From NCBI GenBank assembly GCA_965223905.1, contig CBDCXV010000001.1, positions 736,001-800,000 on the forward strand: 64,000 nt of DNA, given 5' to 3'. Shown piece after piece: positions 33,858 to 62,752 of this stretch (the first letter of the stretch is position 1; the number at the start of each line of letters is the position of its first letter). The position numbers were made by a program, and so were the translations under genes. This DNA is from Candidatus Latescibacterota bacterium (GTDB lineage Bacteria; Latescibacterota; UBA2968; UBA8231). The notes under the pieces were generated by a model that worked only from the letters and a program-made list of their open reading frames with translations, searched no databases and was not told where the DNA came from.

Positions 33858-33947
33858 TTACAATTAACATCAGCGAATCCTAAAATCAGCGAACCTGTCC
33901 AGGTAGCCCGGTCTCGGCTCGTGGCCGCGATCAAGGAAGGCAAAAAG

Positions 33948-34250
33948 ATGACGTCGGAACGAACCCCGGTGGGTCTGGAGATCGAAGCTGCCCTGGAGGA
34001 GGTTCTCTCCCATGTTCGCGGCGAAGTGGATCTGCCGTGCCGCATAGTAGACGATCCCACCGCTGAACGGATTCTCGCGGTGCGGCAGCGAATGAAGTTG
34101 AGTCGAAAGAAATTTGCGGACCGTTTCGGTCTCGATGCGCGTGCCGTGCAGGATTGGGAACAGGGGCGTCGTGTTCCAGACCGCGCCGCCCGAGTTTTGC
34201 TGACCGTCATCGAGCGCGACCCAGAGGCGGTCGTGCGTGCGCTCGCCTGA
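33948..34250 (+). CDS. XRE/Cro-like HTH antitoxin (HigA2/NadS-like), orphan
   Basis: VRQRMKLSRKKFADRFGL...VQDWEQGRRVPDRAARVLLTVIERDPEAV. Confidence 0.87.
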   Translation: MTSERTPVGLEIEAALEEVLSHVRGEVDLPCRIVDDPTAERILAVRQRMKLSRKKFADRFGLDARAVQDWEQGRRVPDRAARVLLTVIERDPEAVVRALA

Positions 34251-34611: not shown

Positions 34612-35853
34612 TCACCAGAAGGAGGCTTTGATGCGCCCCCAAGTATCCGCTTCAAGTATCTTGCCGGCGCCGCAGTCGCCACCGAGGGGATCGTCGATCC
34701 AGCGCACCATGCGCCAGATGCCGTAGTCACCCTGGCGCAGCTTGAAGGTCATGGTCTGGTCGATGCGGAAGCCCTCGTCATCGCTTATCAGGAGCAGGAT
34801 TTCAACGCGGCCCCGGAAGGCTTCCCAGTCCTCGTCCGGATGCCCGTCCGGGTCCCCCTCGAAGGCATCCGGGTAATCGCTACCGAGCTCCACGCTGCGC
34901 TCCAGAAGCTCGAACTGGAACTCGAAGGTGGGAAAGACATCGAAGATGCCTTTGTGGCCGCCGTCGCGGGTACCGGCGAGGATCTCGAGCTCCTCCTCCC
35001 GGCCGTTGGGAAAGACCAGCTCGCCCACGCAGTTGCTTTCTGTAAACCAGAAATTTCCATCCAACAGGGTTTCGTACAGCGCTCCGTCGCGGCCGTTCAT
35101 GGCCAGGGCGAGGTTCCTCATCAGCTGCTCCGGGCTGGTTGCCGGCGGCGGAGGGTCGCCTCGGCGCTCGACCGTGAAGTCGAGCACTCCCCCCTCCGGG
35201 ATGGAAGTGTCGAACTGCCAATACTCCCTGATACCCTCGCCCGCAATGCGGACGGTATAGCGTCGGTTCTGCGCCGGGCGGGCGACCTGCGCTGATTTGC
35301 CGCTCGGGCCCCTGGCCGCTCTGTCCGAGGCGCCGTCGATCAGGGTCATCTTTCCGGCCGCCGTCATTCCCCCTGACTGCAGGCGGTACAGGTACATCCC
35401 CGCGGAAACCCCCATCCCGTTTTCGCCGCGGCCGTCCCAGGCCGCCGCGTTCTCTCCCGCGGGCCGGTACGAGTCCTCCAGGGTGCGGACCCGGTGTCCG
35501 AGCAGGTTGTAGACCGCCAGGTCCACAAGCGCCGGGGTGGCCAGGCTGTAGGGGATGAGGGTGGTGGAGTTGAAGGGGTTGGGGTAGTTCGGGTAGAGCT
35601 GGAATTGGCCGGGGACCGTCCCCGCCTCCGCCGAGGTGGGAAGCGACAGGACGACGGAGTAGCCGCCGTCCCCGGCCGTCGTATCCCCGAATGCCTCCTG
35701 GGGATTGTCCTCGTCGATGAACTGGATGGAAGCGCCCGCCACGGGCGTTCCCTCGGTGTCCGTCACCCTGCCGGTAACGAAGCCCTCCGCGGAAGCAGGC
35801 GCGCAAAGAAACAGGGCGGCGGGAAGCGCGGAAACGGCGATCAGGCGAAACAT
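34612..35853 (-). CDS. Secreted protein: carboxypeptidase-regulatory-like domain, internal FlgD-Ig/T9SS-CTD-like domain, NTF2-like domain, C-terminal TWGRIKAS motif
   Basis: Signal peptide ending ASA; VTGRVTDTEGTPVAGASI; LYPNYPNPFN...WDG...SAGMYLYRL; ADTWGRIKASFW. Confidence 0.82.
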   Translation of the reverse strand: MFRLIAVSALPAALFLCAPASAEGFVTGRVTDTEGTPVAGASIQFIDEDNPQEAFGDTTAGDGGYSVVLSLPTSAEAGTVPGQFQLYPNYPNPFNSTTLIPYSLATPALVDLAVYNLLGHRVRTLEDSYRPAGENAAAWDGRGENGMGVSAGMYLYRLQSGGMTAAGKMTLIDGASDRAARGPSGKSAQVARPAQNRRYTVRIAGEGIREYWQFDTSIPEGGVLDFTVERRGDPPPPATSPEQLMRNLALAMNGRDGALYETLLDGNFWFTESNCVGELVFPNGREEELEILAGTRDGGHKGIFDVFPTFEFQFELLERSVELGSDYPDAFEGDPDGHPDEDWEAFRGRVEILLLISDDEGFRIDQTMTFKLRQGDYGIWRMVRWIDDPLGGDCGAGKILEADTWGRIKASFW

Positions 35854-58100: not shown

Positions 58101-60560
58101 TCAAATCGCGAAGTTGAAGCCCAGGGTGGGGACGATCGGCAACTGCCTTATCACCTCCGCCCTGGTCTCGGGATTGAGCGCATCGAACTGCACGAACCAC
58201 TCGTTGCGCCGGCTGTAGAGATTGTAGATCTGCAAGTAGAGCTCGGCATCGAGACCCCACAGCCGAAACTCGCGGTTGGCGCTGGCGTCGAGGCGGTGGT
58301 AGGGCAGCAGGCGGGCGCTGTTGCGCCGGGCCGGCAGCACGTAGTCCTGCACCTCCCCGGTGGCCGGCTGGCGCAGGGTATAGCGGGCCGCGGCCGGGGT
58401 GAAGGCCTGCCCGGTGGCGTACACGAGGTTCGAGCCAAGGCGCCATTTTCCCGTCCGGTACGAGACCACGAAAGAGAGGTCGTGGCGGCGGTCGTACTTG
58501 GGGGGGAAGGGGAGGCCGCCGTTCAGCTCCGGGAAGGTCCGCCGCGTCCAGCCGAGGGTATAGCCCACCCAGCCGGTGAGAGCCCCGGTTCGCCGCTGCA
58601 GGAAGAGCTCGACCCCCCCGGCCCAGCCGCTGCCGCCGCTTTTGAACACGTCGTCGGACCGCGTCTCCTCGCTGCCGGCGGCCACGGCGTTGTCCAGGAC
58701 CACGAGATTGGCCAAGTCCGTGTAGTAACCCTCCAGGGAAAGTTGGTATCGGCGCGACGGGTTCCACTCGGTGCCGAGCACACCCTGCCAGGAGCGGCCC
58801 GGCTCGACGCTGCTGTCGAGCGGCACCCAGAAATCCCCGCCGCTGAAGGTCTCGGTGGTGACCAGCTGCAGGTACTGGCGGTACATCCCTCCGGCCGCCT
58901 TGACCCGGAGGTTCTCGGTCAGGGCGCGGCTCAGGGAAAGCCGCGGCGTGAAGTGCAGGCGGTTGCCGAGGCTGAACCAGGTGGCACGCCCCCCGAGCCG
59001 CAGCCTCGTCAAGGGGCCGGCCTGCCACTCGTCCTGGGCGTAGACGGAGACCATCACCGGTGCCTGGCGCAGGTCCGACTGCTCCTGCCGGTCGTCGGAT
59101 TGCTCCTGCCGGTCGTCGGACTGCACCTGGTTGTCGGATTGCTCCTGCCGGTCGTCGGACTGCACCTGGTTGTCGGATTGCTCCGGCTGGTTGTCAGACT
59201 GCTCCTGCTCGTTTTCGGACAGCTCCTGCTCGTTGAAGGACCGGGAATAGCGGAACTCGAACAGGGTGGCCAGGAAACCGAGGGTCAGGGTGTGGTCGCT
59301 GTTGGCGAAGTAGTCGACGTCCCCCTTGAGCGAAAGGTCGCGGATGCTGTTGGAGAAAAGGATCGGGGTGTCGAAGAAGCTGGCCAGGATGACGCTTTCG
59401 TAGGACGATCCCGCGGCCATGAAGTGCCCGAACAGGGCCGGCGAGAAGACCCGCGTCCAGCGCGCCGTCAGGGCGCGGTTGCCCCAGCGCAGGTCGAAGA
59501 AGGTCTCCTGCTCCTCTTCCCCAAAATCCACCCGCAGGTCGTCCTGCCCCCAGTAGGTGCTCGCCGTGAAGGTGTCGTCCCCGCGGCGCTGGTTCACCTT
59601 GCCGTTGAAATCGTAGAAGTAATAGTTCAGCGGGATGTCGAAATCGCCCGCGCGCAGGGCGCTGAAGATGCCGTCGAGGTAGGTGCGGCGGCCGGCCAGC
59701 ATCCACGACCCCTGTCCGACCGGCCCCTCGGTTAGCAGGCGGCTCGAGATCAGGCTGACGCCGCCGTGCGTGCTGGCGCGCTCGCGGTTGCCCTCGCGGT
59801 TGCTGACGTCGAGAACCGACCCCAAGGCACGGCCGTACGCGGCCGGGTACGCCCCCTTGTACAGCTGGACGTCCCTGATGGCGTCCGGATTGAAGGTCGA
59901 GAAGAACCCGAAGAGGTGGGAGGGGTTGTACAAGGGAATGTGGTCGAGCAGGATGGCGGTCTGGTCCGGGCCGCCGCCGCGTATGTACAGGCCGCTGCTG
60001 ACGTCGGAGACGGACTGGATCCCCGGCAGCAGCTGCAGGCTGCGCAGAAGGTCGGCCTCGCCGATGGCCGGCATCCGCTGCAGGGGCTCGACCGGCAGAC
60101 TGAGAAAGCTGCCCTGGGTGGCCTGCTCCAGCTCCATGCGTTCGGCCTCGACCACGGTTTCCTCTTCGAGGGCCAGCGGCCGGGGGACCAGGGACCAGTC
60201 CCGCCGCAGTTCACCCGTCTTCCCGAAACGCAGGGTGTCGCGGCCCGTATCGTAGCCTATGTAGGACACGGATACCGCGTAGGTGCCGGCCGGAATATCC
60301 TTGACGGCGTAGTAGCCGCTGCTGTTGCTCACCGCCCCGAGCCGGACCTCCTCGATCGCGATGGTAGCAAGGGGCAGGGCCTCGCCGTTCTCGGCGTCGG
60401 TCACGAAGCCCCCGAGGGTGGCCGCCTGCGCTTTTGCCGCGGCCAGCAGCAGCAAGGAAGCCAGCAACCGACCAGGATTTCCGGAGCTTCGGGTTCGTAT
60501 TCCCGAGGCGGCGGTTTCCGGGCGGCTGGCCCGGTGTCGTTTCGAAACCGGTTTTCTCAC
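58101..60560 (-). CDS. TonB-dependent receptor (carboxypeptidase-regulatory-like + plug), Bacteroidota-type
   Basis: GEADLLRSLQLLPGI, GLYIRGGGPDQ, YNPSHLFGFFSTFN, YDRRH, PYHRLD, YNLYSRRN; start uncertain. Confidence 0.92.
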   Translation of the reverse strand: MRKPVSKRHRASRPETAASGIRTRSSGNPGRLLASLLLLAAAKAQAATLGGFVTDAENGEALPLATIAIEEVRLGAVSNSSGYYAVKDIPAGTYAVSVSYIGYDTGRDTLRFGKTGELRRDWSLVPRPLALEEETVVEAERMELEQATQGSFLSLPVEPLQRMPAIGEADLLRSLQLLPGIQSVSDVSSGLYIRGGGPDQTAILLDHIPLYNPSHLFGFFSTFNPDAIRDVQLYKGAYPAAYGRALGSVLDVSNREGNRERASTHGGVSLISSRLLTEGPVGQGSWMLAGRRTYLDGIFSALRAGDFDIPLNYYFYDFNGKVNQRRGDDTFTASTYWGQDDLRVDFGEEEQETFFDLRWGNRALTARWTRVFSPALFGHFMAAGSSYESVILASFFDTPILFSNSIRDLSLKGDVDYFANSDHTLTLGFLATLFEFRYSRSFNEQELSENEQEQSDNQPEQSDNQVQSDDRQEQSDNQVQSDDRQEQSDDRQEQSDLRQAPVMVSVYAQDEWQAGPLTRLRLGGRATWFSLGNRLHFTPRLSLSRALTENLRVKAAGGMYRQYLQLVTTETFSGGDFWVPLDSSVEPGRSWQGVLGTEWNPSRRYQLSLEGYYTDLANLVVLDNAVAAGSEETRSDDVFKSGGSGWAGGVELFLQRRTGALTGWVGYTLGWTRRTFPELNGGLPFPPKYDRRHDLSFVVSYRTGKWRLGSNLVYATGQAFTPAAARYTLRQPATGEVQDYVLPARRNSARLLPYHRLDASANREFRLWGLDAELYLQIYNLYSRRNEWFVQFDALNPETRAEVIRQLPIVPTLGFNFAI
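59073..59234 (-). repeat. In-frame tandem 18/21-bp repeats encoding (SDNQVQ / SDDRQEQ)n inside the TBDR
   Basis: Protein ...ELSENEQEQSDNQPEQSDNQVQSDDRQEQSDNQVQSDDRQEQSDDRQEQSDL... Confidence 0.9.
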
Positions 60561-60701: not shown

Positions 60702-61692
60702 ATGGTGAAACGCCGTTCCGTATTTCTCCTGACAGTGGCGGCCATTTCGGCTGACGCCGTTGCGGTTGCCGCCCACGTAGGCGACCGTCTGTTTCCGATC
60801 CCGTACCTCTCGGAGGAGACCCTTGCCCGCCTCGACCTGGACGACGGCAGCGTGGAAGACTGGCTGGATGCCGTCGGTGAGCCGACCCTGACGCCCCTCG
60901 ACTTCAACCTGTGGTCGGATACGGAGACGACTTCGTACGACCAGCTCGATCCAGCCAACCTCGATTTCCGCATCTGGGTGGGATGGAGCCGGGACGGCCG
61001 GATCCACGTCGCCGGCGAGTTCGCCGACGACGTGTACGTGAACGAATACGACCCACTCGAATTCCCCAACTTTTTTTTCGACGCCCATGACAGCATGAGT
61101 TTTCTGATCGACGGAGATCACACGGGAGGAAAGTATATCTTTCTCAATCCGCCTGATTTGGACGAGTTGATGACGAACAGTCAAGCCCAAGGATACGACG
61201 CTATTGCCCGTGTTCCCGGAGGCCCGATGATCAGTTTGCATTTGACTACAGATGTGATTTTCGATGAGCAAGGCGAGCCGCCGGACTGGATGGTACGTCC
61301 CCCGTTCGCCGGCGGCGGAGGGGGGGGTGTTCGGCGAGAAACCCACTGTCTGGCTGATCGAGTTTTTCGTCACCAGCTTTGACCGCCTGCATCACCTGAG
61401 CCCCCCCGAGGAGAGTGTCGTATCCCGGTTGGCCGAAGGAAGGATCGTCGGGTTTGATGTCCGGGTCCGTGACTACGACATCGAACCCGACGGCCCAATG
61501 GCCTCGTACATGCTGGGTGAACCCAGTTATGAGGGTATCCGCAGACAAGCCAGCAATTGGGCGGACGGCCTGCTGCTCGGCCCCGGCGGGGGGTCGGGCG
61601 ACTCTGCGGTGCAATCCGACTCCTGGGGCCGCATCAAGGCATCCCTGGAAGTAGATCTTCTCAGCGAAGACTCCCATTCCCACAAGGACTGA
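60702..61692 (+). pseudogene. Secreted DOMON/CBM9-like protein with C-terminal SWGRIKAS motif; +1 frameshift in G8 tract (61320-61327)
   Basis: Signal peptide, DDGSVEDW, FRIWVGWS, DGDHTGG; continues GGVFGEKPTVWLIEFFVT...AVQSDSWGRIKASL in a second frame. Confidence 0.7.
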
Positions 61693-61899
61693 GTCACCCG
61701 ACTGGCGGCTTCCCTGCCGCCCTGTCAATATTTCCACAGGGCACCGGGATCTCGTATAGTCCCCGATGGCGAATGGCATCGCGGGGTTTCCGGAGGCTGC
61801 TTCCTCGATCCCCGGGTTTGGACCAGGCAGAATCCTTGCCTGTGGCTTCGCAGTAAACTCTATCAACGGATACCAGTTCCAGTGACAGGAGACTTTGGG

Positions 61900-62752
61900 A
61901 TGCGAAACCTGTGCCGGACCGCCGCGGTGAATACGGCGCTGGTCGCCTCGGTCACGGCTTCTCCGGCCGCCGCGGCCGGCCCCAGCGCCGCGGACTTCAC
62001 CATGCACGTGCCGCTTCTGCTCGAAGCGCCGGCCATCGACGGCGACCTCTCCGAATGGAAGGAGCTGTCCTACACCGACGGCGTCTGGGACATGCAGCGG
62101 CTGCGCTACACTCCCTGGTTCGACGCCCGCATCAACCGGCTCACCGACCACGGGGACGAGCCTTCCTCCGAGGAGGATCTGCGGGCACGCTACTACATCG
62201 CCTGGGACAGGAAGTTTCTCTATCTCGGGGCTGAGGGCCGGGACAACGTCAACGACGTCGACGACCCGGAGCCGGGCAGGAACCGCTGGTGGTGCATGGA
62301 CGCGGTGGCCTGGTACATGGAAGCGCCGCGCGACGAGGCGCCCGAGTCGTTTCAGCCAGGGGGACAACGGTTTCTGCTTCGTCGTCGATCCGCGCAAGCC
62401 GGACTACGGTGCCTGGTGGATGCATGGCACTGCGGATACGACCTACATCCACGAGCCGCTCCCGAAGGCCGCGGTCGATTACGAGGTGCGGCTCGATCCC
62501 CTGGGGCGCGGCCGCGGCGATTTCGTTCTCGAGGCGCGCGTCGACATGGCGGCCACCTTCGGCGTCAGCGATCCCGACTGGCGACCCCCGGAGATTGGCG
62601 ACCTGTACAGCCTGGAGATCGTCCACACCGATCCGGACGGGGGCCGCTACGGCGGGCATTTCGTGCTCTACGGAAACGGCGACGACGACTCGACCTGGGG
62701 CAAGGTCGTCCTGGTGGGCCCGTCCGACCCGGTTGAGCGAAAACCGGAATAG
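61900..62752 (+). pseudogene. Secreted CBM9/DOMON-like sugar-binding protein; +1 frameshift in G5 (62359-62363)
   Basis: APAIDGDLSEW, YIAWDRKFLYLGAEGRDN, then GDNGFCFV...FVLEARV in a second frame. Confidence 0.7.

Follow-up and report, generated by a model that had tools for sequence, protein, structure and literature searches.

Two genes in a 64,000-nucleotide stretch of the genome of a Candidatus Latescibacterota bacterium (assembly GCA_965223905.1, contig CBDCXV010000001.1, forward-strand positions 736,001 to 800,000; this whole stretch, numbered from its first letter, is called the window) encode otherwise unrelated exported proteins that end in the same short peptide, with tryptophan, glycine and lysine at its core. 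The peptide, termed here the W-tail, is a portable, strictly C-terminal tag on exported proteins of many unrelated folds. By what is it read? The answer put forward here, tentatively and as a possibility that falls a little short of probable, is that it is a minimal sorting signal linked to the type IX secretion system (T9SS), being either a relative or a replacement of that system's type-A C-terminal domain (CTD).

Gene 1 (34612..35853, minus strand) encodes a protein ending ...GKILEADTWGRIKASFW-stop, and gene 2, on the plus strand, one ending ...GDSAVQSDSWGRIKASLEVDLLSEDSHSHKD-stop, with AVQSDSWGRIKAS at 61606-61644. A first-pass annotation of the window, made from the letters alone, had drawn attention to a C-terminal motif shared by two unrelated secreted proteins, and both gene ends and the differing folds of the two carriers, NTF2-like in gene 1 and a CBM9-like beta-sandwich in gene 2, bear it out. 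The codon differences that it listed (GGG/GGC, AAA/AAG, GCC/GCA) are exact, and conservation is, as it held, at the level of protein.

The genome scanned comprises 7.92 Mb in 11 contigs and yields 68,173 stop-to-stop frames of at least 60 amino acids (aa). There are 94 matches to [ST]WGx[IVLM]K in these frames, of which 93 lie no more than 35 aa from the stop and 71 no more than 10 aa, against 25% of all positions that near; the reversed motif, as a control on the same frames, gave 4 matches with 1 near a stop. A profile search added the variant SWARIK, and a wider expression that includes it found 134 frames, leaving 131 tail frames once three false ones (an ATPase, a glycosyltransferase and one doubtful frame) were removed. 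These 131 end (D/P)-T-A-V-E-x-x-[ST]-W-[GA]-x-[IVL]-K-x-x-[LFY]-x(1-3)-stop, the consensus being (D/P)-(T/S)-A-V-E-x-x-(S/T)-W-(G/A)-R-I-K-A-S-(L/F)-x-x-stop, preceded by a stretch rich in G/D/S/P/E; the tail, counted from its T-A-V-E box up to the stop, measures ~17-20 residues. A box of the form [ST]x[VIL] stands six residues ahead of the S/T in 100 of the 131 tails. After the lysine come 4-5 residues in 66/131 and 2-7 in 98/131, with polar extensions of up to 32 residues in the others, and the absence of a transmembrane segment that the first-pass annotation had noted thus holds good. In all, the tag is borne by ~2% of the genes of this genome.

That the carriers are diverse is evident from their bodies, those of 127 tail frames falling into 41 BLAST clusters with 62 (including gene 2), 10, 6, 6, 4, 2, 2 and 2 members and 33 singletons; one of the two-member clusters consists of gene 1 and a lipoprotein paralogue. 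Among 18 representatives Pfam recognized CBM9_1, FGE-sulfatase, PD40, LVIVD, BNR/Sortilin-Vps10, Kelch and Temptin_C, with 10 lacking a match at an E-value (E) <=0.01, and a sub-cut-off match to TIGR04312 (77.8 bits, cut-off 100) relates the LVIVD carrier to the 'choice-of-anchor B' domain. At least 8 unrelated folds carry the tail behind variable linkers, so confinement to one homologous family, which would have spoken against a tag, is not what is seen. A strict home-made rule assigns signal peptides to 58 of the 92 tail frames of at least 200 aa and to 222 of 1500 background frames, and a relaxed rule to 73/92 and 320/1500 respectively, several of the misses being evident signal peptides by eye or N-terminally truncated frames. 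The N-terminal signal peptides and the flexible linker ahead of the motif that had been described for the window's pair are therefore general features, the linker being variable, and the suspected enrichment at the C-termini of signal-peptide proteins is present. Carriers are small, with a median of 312 aa for tail frames of at least 200 aa versus 738 aa for the 92 frames with a CTD of xPNPF type.

Neither Pfam nor NCBIfam has a family over the tail region in 5 + 18 whole proteins, and when 15 isolated 45-aa tails were compared with both at E <=10 no model emerged, the lone match being a spurious MurE in one member. The possibility raised at the outset that a characterised sorting-domain model already covers the tail thus finds nothing in its favour in either collection, and the sorting-signal models of NCBIfam do not match it. 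No published description of the tail was found by motif or by topic, as judged on listings and abstracts, with supplementary files outside the search. Well-known tripartite sorting signals (LPXTG/sortase, PEP-CTERM/exosortase and GlyGly-CTERM/rhombosortase) consist of a motif, a hydrophobic transmembrane helix and a basic cluster. The W-tail resembles them as a short C-terminal motif on many exported families, with tens to hundreds per genome and a lineage-restricted distribution, but differs in having neither a transmembrane segment nor a basic cluster after the motif. The blindness of Pfam and NCBIfam to the tag leaves a large gap in predicting the destinations of exported proteins in several uncultured phyla.

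The tail is widespread in Latescibacterota-type genomes. With the DNA pattern [ST]A[VI]xxx[ST]W[GA]xhK, 24 other genomes of the window's family each gave 5-97 matches (24/24), compared with 0-1 in 16 genomes of three sister families and 0-1 in backward controls. A phylum-wide sample of 140 genomes of at least 85% completeness, in families designated f1-f13 with f1 the window's own, was scanned also with a second pattern independent of T-A-V, [ST]WGxIKxx[FY]. Tails were found in 62/62 f1 genomes with the first pattern and 61/62 with the second, and are present in f5, f6, f7, f8, f9 and f11, in keeping with the first-pass annotation, which placed similar tails on secreted proteins of Poribacteria/Latescibacterota-type genomes. 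One match in f12 (TWGTIKALY) and 0-1 per genome in the 10 genomes of f10 are at or near chance level, the 4 genomes of f13 have no tails by either pattern, and the 53 genomes of f2, f3 and f4 gave 0-2 matches, mostly out of frame. Beyond the sample, an all-species scan with TAVExx[ST]WGxIK, using one genome per species, found at least 112 loci labelled Latescibacterota, Gemmatimonadota/-etes, Eisenbacteria, Handelsmanbacteria or just 'bacterium'; the labels are as deposited, and one record labelled 'Handelsmanbacteria' belongs to the family of the window. Among the matches listed a stop follows no more than 10 residues beyond the motif in 111/112, the exception entering masked sequence, and among those listed from other species the third residue after the lysine is F/Y/L/M/I in 102/111 and the distance from lysine to stop is 4-5 in 83/111. 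W, G and K are conserved across phyla, with synonymous codon changes.

Several lines of evidence point from the tail to the T9SS. This genome (G000) has SprA, a PorV-like gene adjoining PorU, and PorU itself at 617 bits, and the CTD model TIGR04183 is over its cut-off in 125 of the 144 matches listed for it at E <=0.01. In no frame of the genome do tail and CTD stand together at the end. The most direct link is a swap: the W-tail protein P0241, an LVIVD protein of 385 aa, and P0247, a paralogue of 487 aa in the same genome, share 68% identity over 374 aa, and the alignment runs through ...T-(E)-T-A-V, beyond which P0241 has K-P-A-S-W-G-R-V-K-T-L-F-R-D-R-N-stop and P0247 a type-A CTD. P0241 is also 62-70% identical to two dozen further proteins of ~430-540 aa, 22 of them (P0263 and P0264 being the others) with PF18962 and/or PF13860, and among its best 120 homologues CTD Pfam domains occur in 63 and the tail in P0241 alone. 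Recent truncation or gene conversion was considered as the origin of the P0241 tail and set aside, there being no CTD remnant downstream and the tail DNA being unlike that of other tails. A CTD-bearing paralogue in the same genome exists for 18 of the 131 tail frames.

The box at which the swap occurs is not peculiar to that pair. Of 60 CTDs of the genome, 14 have T-A-[VI], often as P-T-A-V-x-E, at 16-20 aa ahead of NYPNPF, with ~1 expected on a rough estimate; ~20 of those 60 form one paralogous subfamily whose upstream sequence is different. Among 64 CTD proteins from three homologue searches the box is present in 46, with a peak at 19 aa, many of these being LVIVD orthologues and so not independent, though unrelated proteins have it too, and it lies upstream of where matches to TIGR04183 and PF13860 begin. 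As a DNA pattern, TA[VI]-gap-[YF]PNPF has 4-47 copies in each of the 62/62 genomes of the window's family (backward controls 0-1) and is found also in f6, f7, f8, f9, f10 and f11, with 0-1 in f2-f4. At the other end, type-A CTDs finish T-R-K-L-[TL]-L-L-[RK]; position -6 is K or R in 69 of 92 of them, at the same distance from the end as the tail lysine, the flanking residues differing.

Occurrence of the PorU sortase also accords with the link. It is full-length (best E 1e-116 to 1e-226) in f1 and in all of f5-f13, apart from a partial match (8e-72) in one fragmented f1 genome, and in the 53 genomes of f2-f4 there are only PorU-like matches below the cut-off (E 1e-48 to 1e-83), covering the model's first two thirds and lying within frames of ~1900 aa, or, in 3 genomes, none. 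Overall PorU is over the cut-off in 85/140 genomes of the phylum sample. It is so also in 5/5 tail-bearing genomes tested, four of them with other labels, and SprA was present in 5/5 of an overlapping set; among the genomes sampled none was found with the tail and without canonical PorU. It is because of the shared box, the lysine position, the swap with a CTD and the restriction to genomes with PorU that the tail is taken to be tied to the T9SS rather than to be wholly separate from it. The first-pass annotation had envisaged a tag without known machinery, on the lines of LPxTG, PEP-CTERM or the T9SS CTD; the tag stands, and the T9SS link would narrow the scope for a system of its own.

Against the type-A CTD itself, which SprA/PorV read and the PorU sortase cuts, the likenesses and differences can be set out closely. 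Both are C-terminal on Sec-exported cargo of diverse folds in the same genomes, both have the T-A-V box at the start and a conserved lysine ~5 residues from the end, they are interchangeable in close paralogues, and both tolerate C-terminal extensions. The tail, however, has ~17 residues against ~100, which allow no immunoglobulin-like (Ig-like) sandwich of ~70-100 residues; it lacks the NYPNPF, WDG and GxY motifs, matches none of the curated models (TIGR04183, PF18962 Por_Secre_tail, PF13860) and is on small carriers. Those parts of PMC11285876 on which we draw report that the targeting signal of P. gingivalis HBP35 maps to the last 22 residues of its CTD, that strand beta7 carries a conserved lysine, and that the C-terminus of the CTD can be extended without loss of function, a tolerance that the post-tail extensions of 2-32 residues match. 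The minimal signal of HBP35, as described there, is short and C-terminal like the tail, has a conserved lysine, there in a terminal strand, and is reported to hold targeting information; unlike the tail it has a folded CTD as its natural context, whereas the W-tail alone would be the whole natural signal.

The tail has two parts, the T-A-V-(E) box, which also stands ahead of type-A CTDs in these lineages, and [ST]-W-G-x-[IVL]-K-x-x-[FYL], with an invariant lysine ~5 residues from the C-terminus, a position matching that of the lysine in the last strand of type-A CTDs. If it is a minimal T9SS-linked signal, after Sec export it would be read by the T9SS sorting and attachment apparatus, namely the PorU sortase together with PorV, PorZ and PorQ, the SprA translocon, or both, and the carrier would then be passed to, retained at, or processed at the outer membrane; small single-domain proteins (median ~310 aa) would thereby make do with a 17-residue label in place of a domain of ~100 residues. 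We infer alike the reading by T9SS parts, the final location of the proteins and any cleavage of the tail. Should the account be right, it would show which parts of the ~100-residue sorting domain hold the information, an open question in the field, and offer surface display or secretion a very short tag; the T-A-V box, the lysine position, the swap and the co-occurrence with PorU make the matter testable. A bolder version, which we regard as doubtful, would make the natural 17-residue peptide T-A-V-E-x-x-[ST]-W-G-x-I-K-x-x-[FY]-x-x by itself a full T9SS signal, or 'mini-CTD'. Its truth would mean that cargo recognition and PorU-type processing can proceed without an Ig-like fold, and that small proteins reach the surface in this way by the hundred across whole phyla (Latescibacterota, Eisenbacteria and relatives).

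A number of observations weigh against the T9SS link. PorU is found without tails, the 4 genomes of f13 having none and the 10 of f10 having 0-1, and with these PorU-positive families almost tail-less PorU is at most necessary; SprA and PorV-like genes occur in tail-less families too. The contrast in PorU between f1 and f2-f4 may reflect a single evolutionary event. The resemblance of tail to CTD comprises a box of 3-4 residues and one lysine position, from which homology is unprovable, and near the tail genes of this genome and of five distant genomes no dedicated reader gene was found. In P. gingivalis, according to the same parts of PMC11285876, the folded Ig-like CTD architecture and a motif in the loop beta3-beta4 are essential, and that a 17-residue tail can supply neither the fold nor the loop argues against its sufficiency.

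A first rival is an independent sorting or anchoring signal with a reader of its own, whether a protease, a transpeptidase or a receptor, in which case the likeness to the CTD junction would be no more than a shared linker convention. That W, G and K are strictly kept from phylum to phylum does point to a protein that recognizes them specifically; tail-less sister families possess the core genes of the T9SS, PorU-positive f13 is tail-less, and no T9SS model matches the tail. Yet no candidate reader gene recurs beside tail genes, either in this genome or in the five distant ones, the tail has never been found without canonical PorU, and tail and CTD are swapped exactly at the shared box, so that we consider an independent system unlikely, if still to be taken seriously. 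Decidedly less probable is that the tail is a docking peptide that adds a strand to a partner, either a T9SS cargo of the same operon or a large outer-membrane barrel, by which small binding proteins would travel with surface complexes or assemble onto them. CBM9-like tail genes do head operons of 1-3 cargo genes, with 21/52 members of one cargo family, of F5/8-type-C + CHU_C architecture, no more than two genes from a tail gene, and in distant families tail genes stand beside barrel-like proteins of ~1000 aa ending ...YVGF and lipoproteins of ~250 aa, but most of the 41 clusters have no such conserved neighbours, genes of the barrel family are near tail genes in only 4/32 instances, and one invariant tail would have to suit many partners.

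Docking would at least be compatible with the shape of the tail, as an amphipathic strand fits the sequence pattern better than a helix. For the nine residues from the S/T the helical hydrophobic moment is 0.348, with shuffles at 0.363 ± 0.17, and the amphipathic helix proposed in the first-pass annotation is accordingly not supported, the moment being no higher than that of shuffles. The strand moment of 0.527 is modestly raised over shuffles (0.347 ± 0.19) and is reached by 19% of single shuffles. In the AlphaFold2 models of both carriers W...L forms a helix, at a predicted local distance difference test score (pLDDT) of ~86-94 in the NTF2-like protein and ~43 in the CBM9-like paralogue, and we hold a strand adding to the sheet of a partner to be at least as likely as a helix. 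The modelled short helix over WGRIKASL in two unrelated carriers, together with its aromatic and basic residues, is what could be said for a membrane-interface anchor that needs no machinery and works through the side chains of Trp, Ile and Phe and the charges of Lys/Arg; but only ~9 residues are available, their helical moment is that of shuffles, and generic anchors do not hold W, G and K, or a T-A-V-E box, constant from phylum to phylum, which makes such an anchor quite improbable. Might the tail be no signal at all, rather a structural cap, a tag for degradation or an inert vestige of lost CTDs? The confident model of the tail in the NTF2-like carrier would allow it to pack on its own domain, though that of the CBM9-like carrier is unpacked, and with at least 8 unrelated folds, variable linkers, ~130 copies per genome, conservation across phyla, nothing left of a CTD beyond the end of the swapped gene and tails unlike one another in their DNA, we give this very little credence indeed.

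The search for a reader deserves recounting for the candidates that fell by the wayside. SprA fails as a discriminator since it is present in 41/41 relatives, and PorV copy number does so with 3-27 copies across the tail-less f2-f4 versus 1-7 in f1, f3 overlapping f1. A family of NTF2-like lipoproteins was also entertained as the reader. These are single-copy and 55-80% identical in 23/24 genomes of the window's family and occur in 0/16 genomes of f2-f4, but in the four tail-bearing genomes tested beyond the family the only match was a weak, partial one in G042 (E 6.5e-5), with G044, G045 and G046 giving none. We conclude that the lipoproteins are a conserved substrate. Neighbour enrichment, in this genome and around 26 tail genes of the five distant genomes, revealed no protease or transpeptidase; the neighbours found were T9SS cargo, barrel-like proteins, lipoproteins and regulators.

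In the sister families f2-f4 (G025-G040, G071-G107) there is SprA, with many PorV-like genes in f2 and f4 (8-27 per genome; 3-24 in f3), and no canonical PorU, and first-look PorU candidates number 10-32 per genome as against 30-247 in f1. The T9SS of f2-f4 may work differently.

Returning to the window, gene 1 has the following features.

34612..35853, minus strand: gene 1, 413 aa from the Met at 35853, exported and multidomain with the W-tail at its end; the open frame extends to 35970
35785..35853, minus strand: signal peptide MFRLIAVSALPAALFLCAPASAE, read by eye, a home-made rule classing most tail proteins likewise
35650..35778, minus strand: CarboxypepD_reg-like domain (PF13620, E 3e-6, 27.9 bits, under the Pfam cut-off of 32.3)
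35356..35586, minus strand: internal, non-C-terminal domain like the T9SS type-A CTD and FlgD_ig (YPNYPNPFN...; TIGR04183 30 bits, cut-off 23; PF13860 28 bits, cut-off 27)
34678..35133, minus strand: NTF2-like domain (AlphaFold2 pLDDT 91; Foldseek against the PDB finds NTF2-like/SnoaL-like chains)
34648..34677, minus strand: variable low-complexity linker from the NTF2-like domain to the tail (pLDDT ~60)
34615..34647, minus strand: W-tail core D-T-W-G-R-I-K-A-S-F-W, the T-A-V-E box being degenerate here (I-L-E-A)

The equivalent start Met is used by the closest homologues of gene 1, P0001 and P0002 (414 aa). Its internal CTD-like domain, with a P-T-S-A-E box ~19 aa upstream, makes it the sole tail open reading frame (ORF) of the genome with an xPNPF motif. 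The NTF2-like domain belongs to the lipoprotein family just discussed, which is widespread, ~230 aa long and of the pattern C-[GS]-NPFAP ... DDPLxGDCG; its linker ranges from ~8 to 30 residues, and among 48 members the tail W is invariant and the K is kept in at least 90%. These lipoproteins (P0010-P0088) are met with at 55-70% identity across many metagenomes, with (G/S)-NPFAP following the lipobox Cys and an invariant DDPLxGDCG before the linker. Just downstream of gene 1, on the opposite strand, is a small helix-turn-helix ORF, XRE/antitoxin-like by eye, at 33921-34250 (plus strand).

What the first-pass annotation took for one protein at 60702-61692 is a pair of overlapping frames separated by a frameshift in a G homopolymer, as set out here.

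60702..61382, plus strand: N-terminal piece of gene 2, with signal peptide and the first part of the CBM9-like beta-sandwich, of a 62-member paralogue family
~61319..61328, plus strand: G homopolymer with the gene 2 frame shift, the run being read in the DNA; a paralogue reads ...PPFARGGGGVFGENP... through the same place
61264..61692, plus strand: C-terminal piece, belonging to gene 2 only beyond the frameshift, with the W-tail and a 17-residue extension
61603..61647, plus strand: W-tail of gene 2, S-A-V-Q-S-D-S-W-G-R-I-K-A-S-L

The protein of gene 2 also reads ...SAVQSDSWGRIKASLEVDLLSEDSHSHKD at its end. The place of the frameshift is intact in a 317-aa paralogue, and since that protein reads through it the break is probably an assembly indel or a recent one. 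The beta-sandwich of the 62-member family rests on an AlphaFold2 model of a paralogue, and the tail is carried by 105 of the best 120 homologues of gene 2. Tail frames under 200 aa make up 39 of the 131, and we take most of them to be fragments from frameshifts like that of gene 2. The assembly probably holds many homopolymer indels, with gene calls fragmented; the one break inspected lies in the G homopolymer. A homologue of the CBM9-like family was not found in tail-less families with one query in 5 genomes, an empty answer that says little.

Directly upstream of gene 2, at 58101-60560 (minus strand), is a TonB-dependent-receptor-like gene of 819 aa with an N-terminal carboxypeptidase-regulatory-like part, by eye, and a barrel region that holds an odd insert of low complexity made up of QSDNQ/QSDDRQEQSD repeats. 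On the other side, gene 2 adjoins a second CBM9-like secreted gene at 61882-62752 (plus strand), in two frames (61882..62736 and 62420..62752), which ends ...DDDSTWGKVVLVGPSDPVERKPE and has no W-tail, the 'TWGK' there being probably the domain's final strand, not a tag.

Elsewhere in the genome CBM9-like W-tail genes recur in an operon with 1-3 T9SS cargo genes following on the same strand (630-1120 aa; F5/8 type C with a CHU_C-type tail in the one scanned), examples in G000 being C10:1836983-1842200, C11:527405-539350, C11:1702919-1707800 and C11:1738698-1746700, among others. Across distant families there is in addition a module of proteins of ~1000 aa without Pfam match, with an end (...YVGF) like that of an outer-membrane protein and Asp-rich calcium-type repeats, a lipoprotein of ~250 aa also without Pfam match, and a CBM9-like W-tail protein; it is seen at L137 (G050), L143 (G051) and L148 (G064), and in G000 at C11:915067-919119, and may be an outer-membrane uptake or binding complex.

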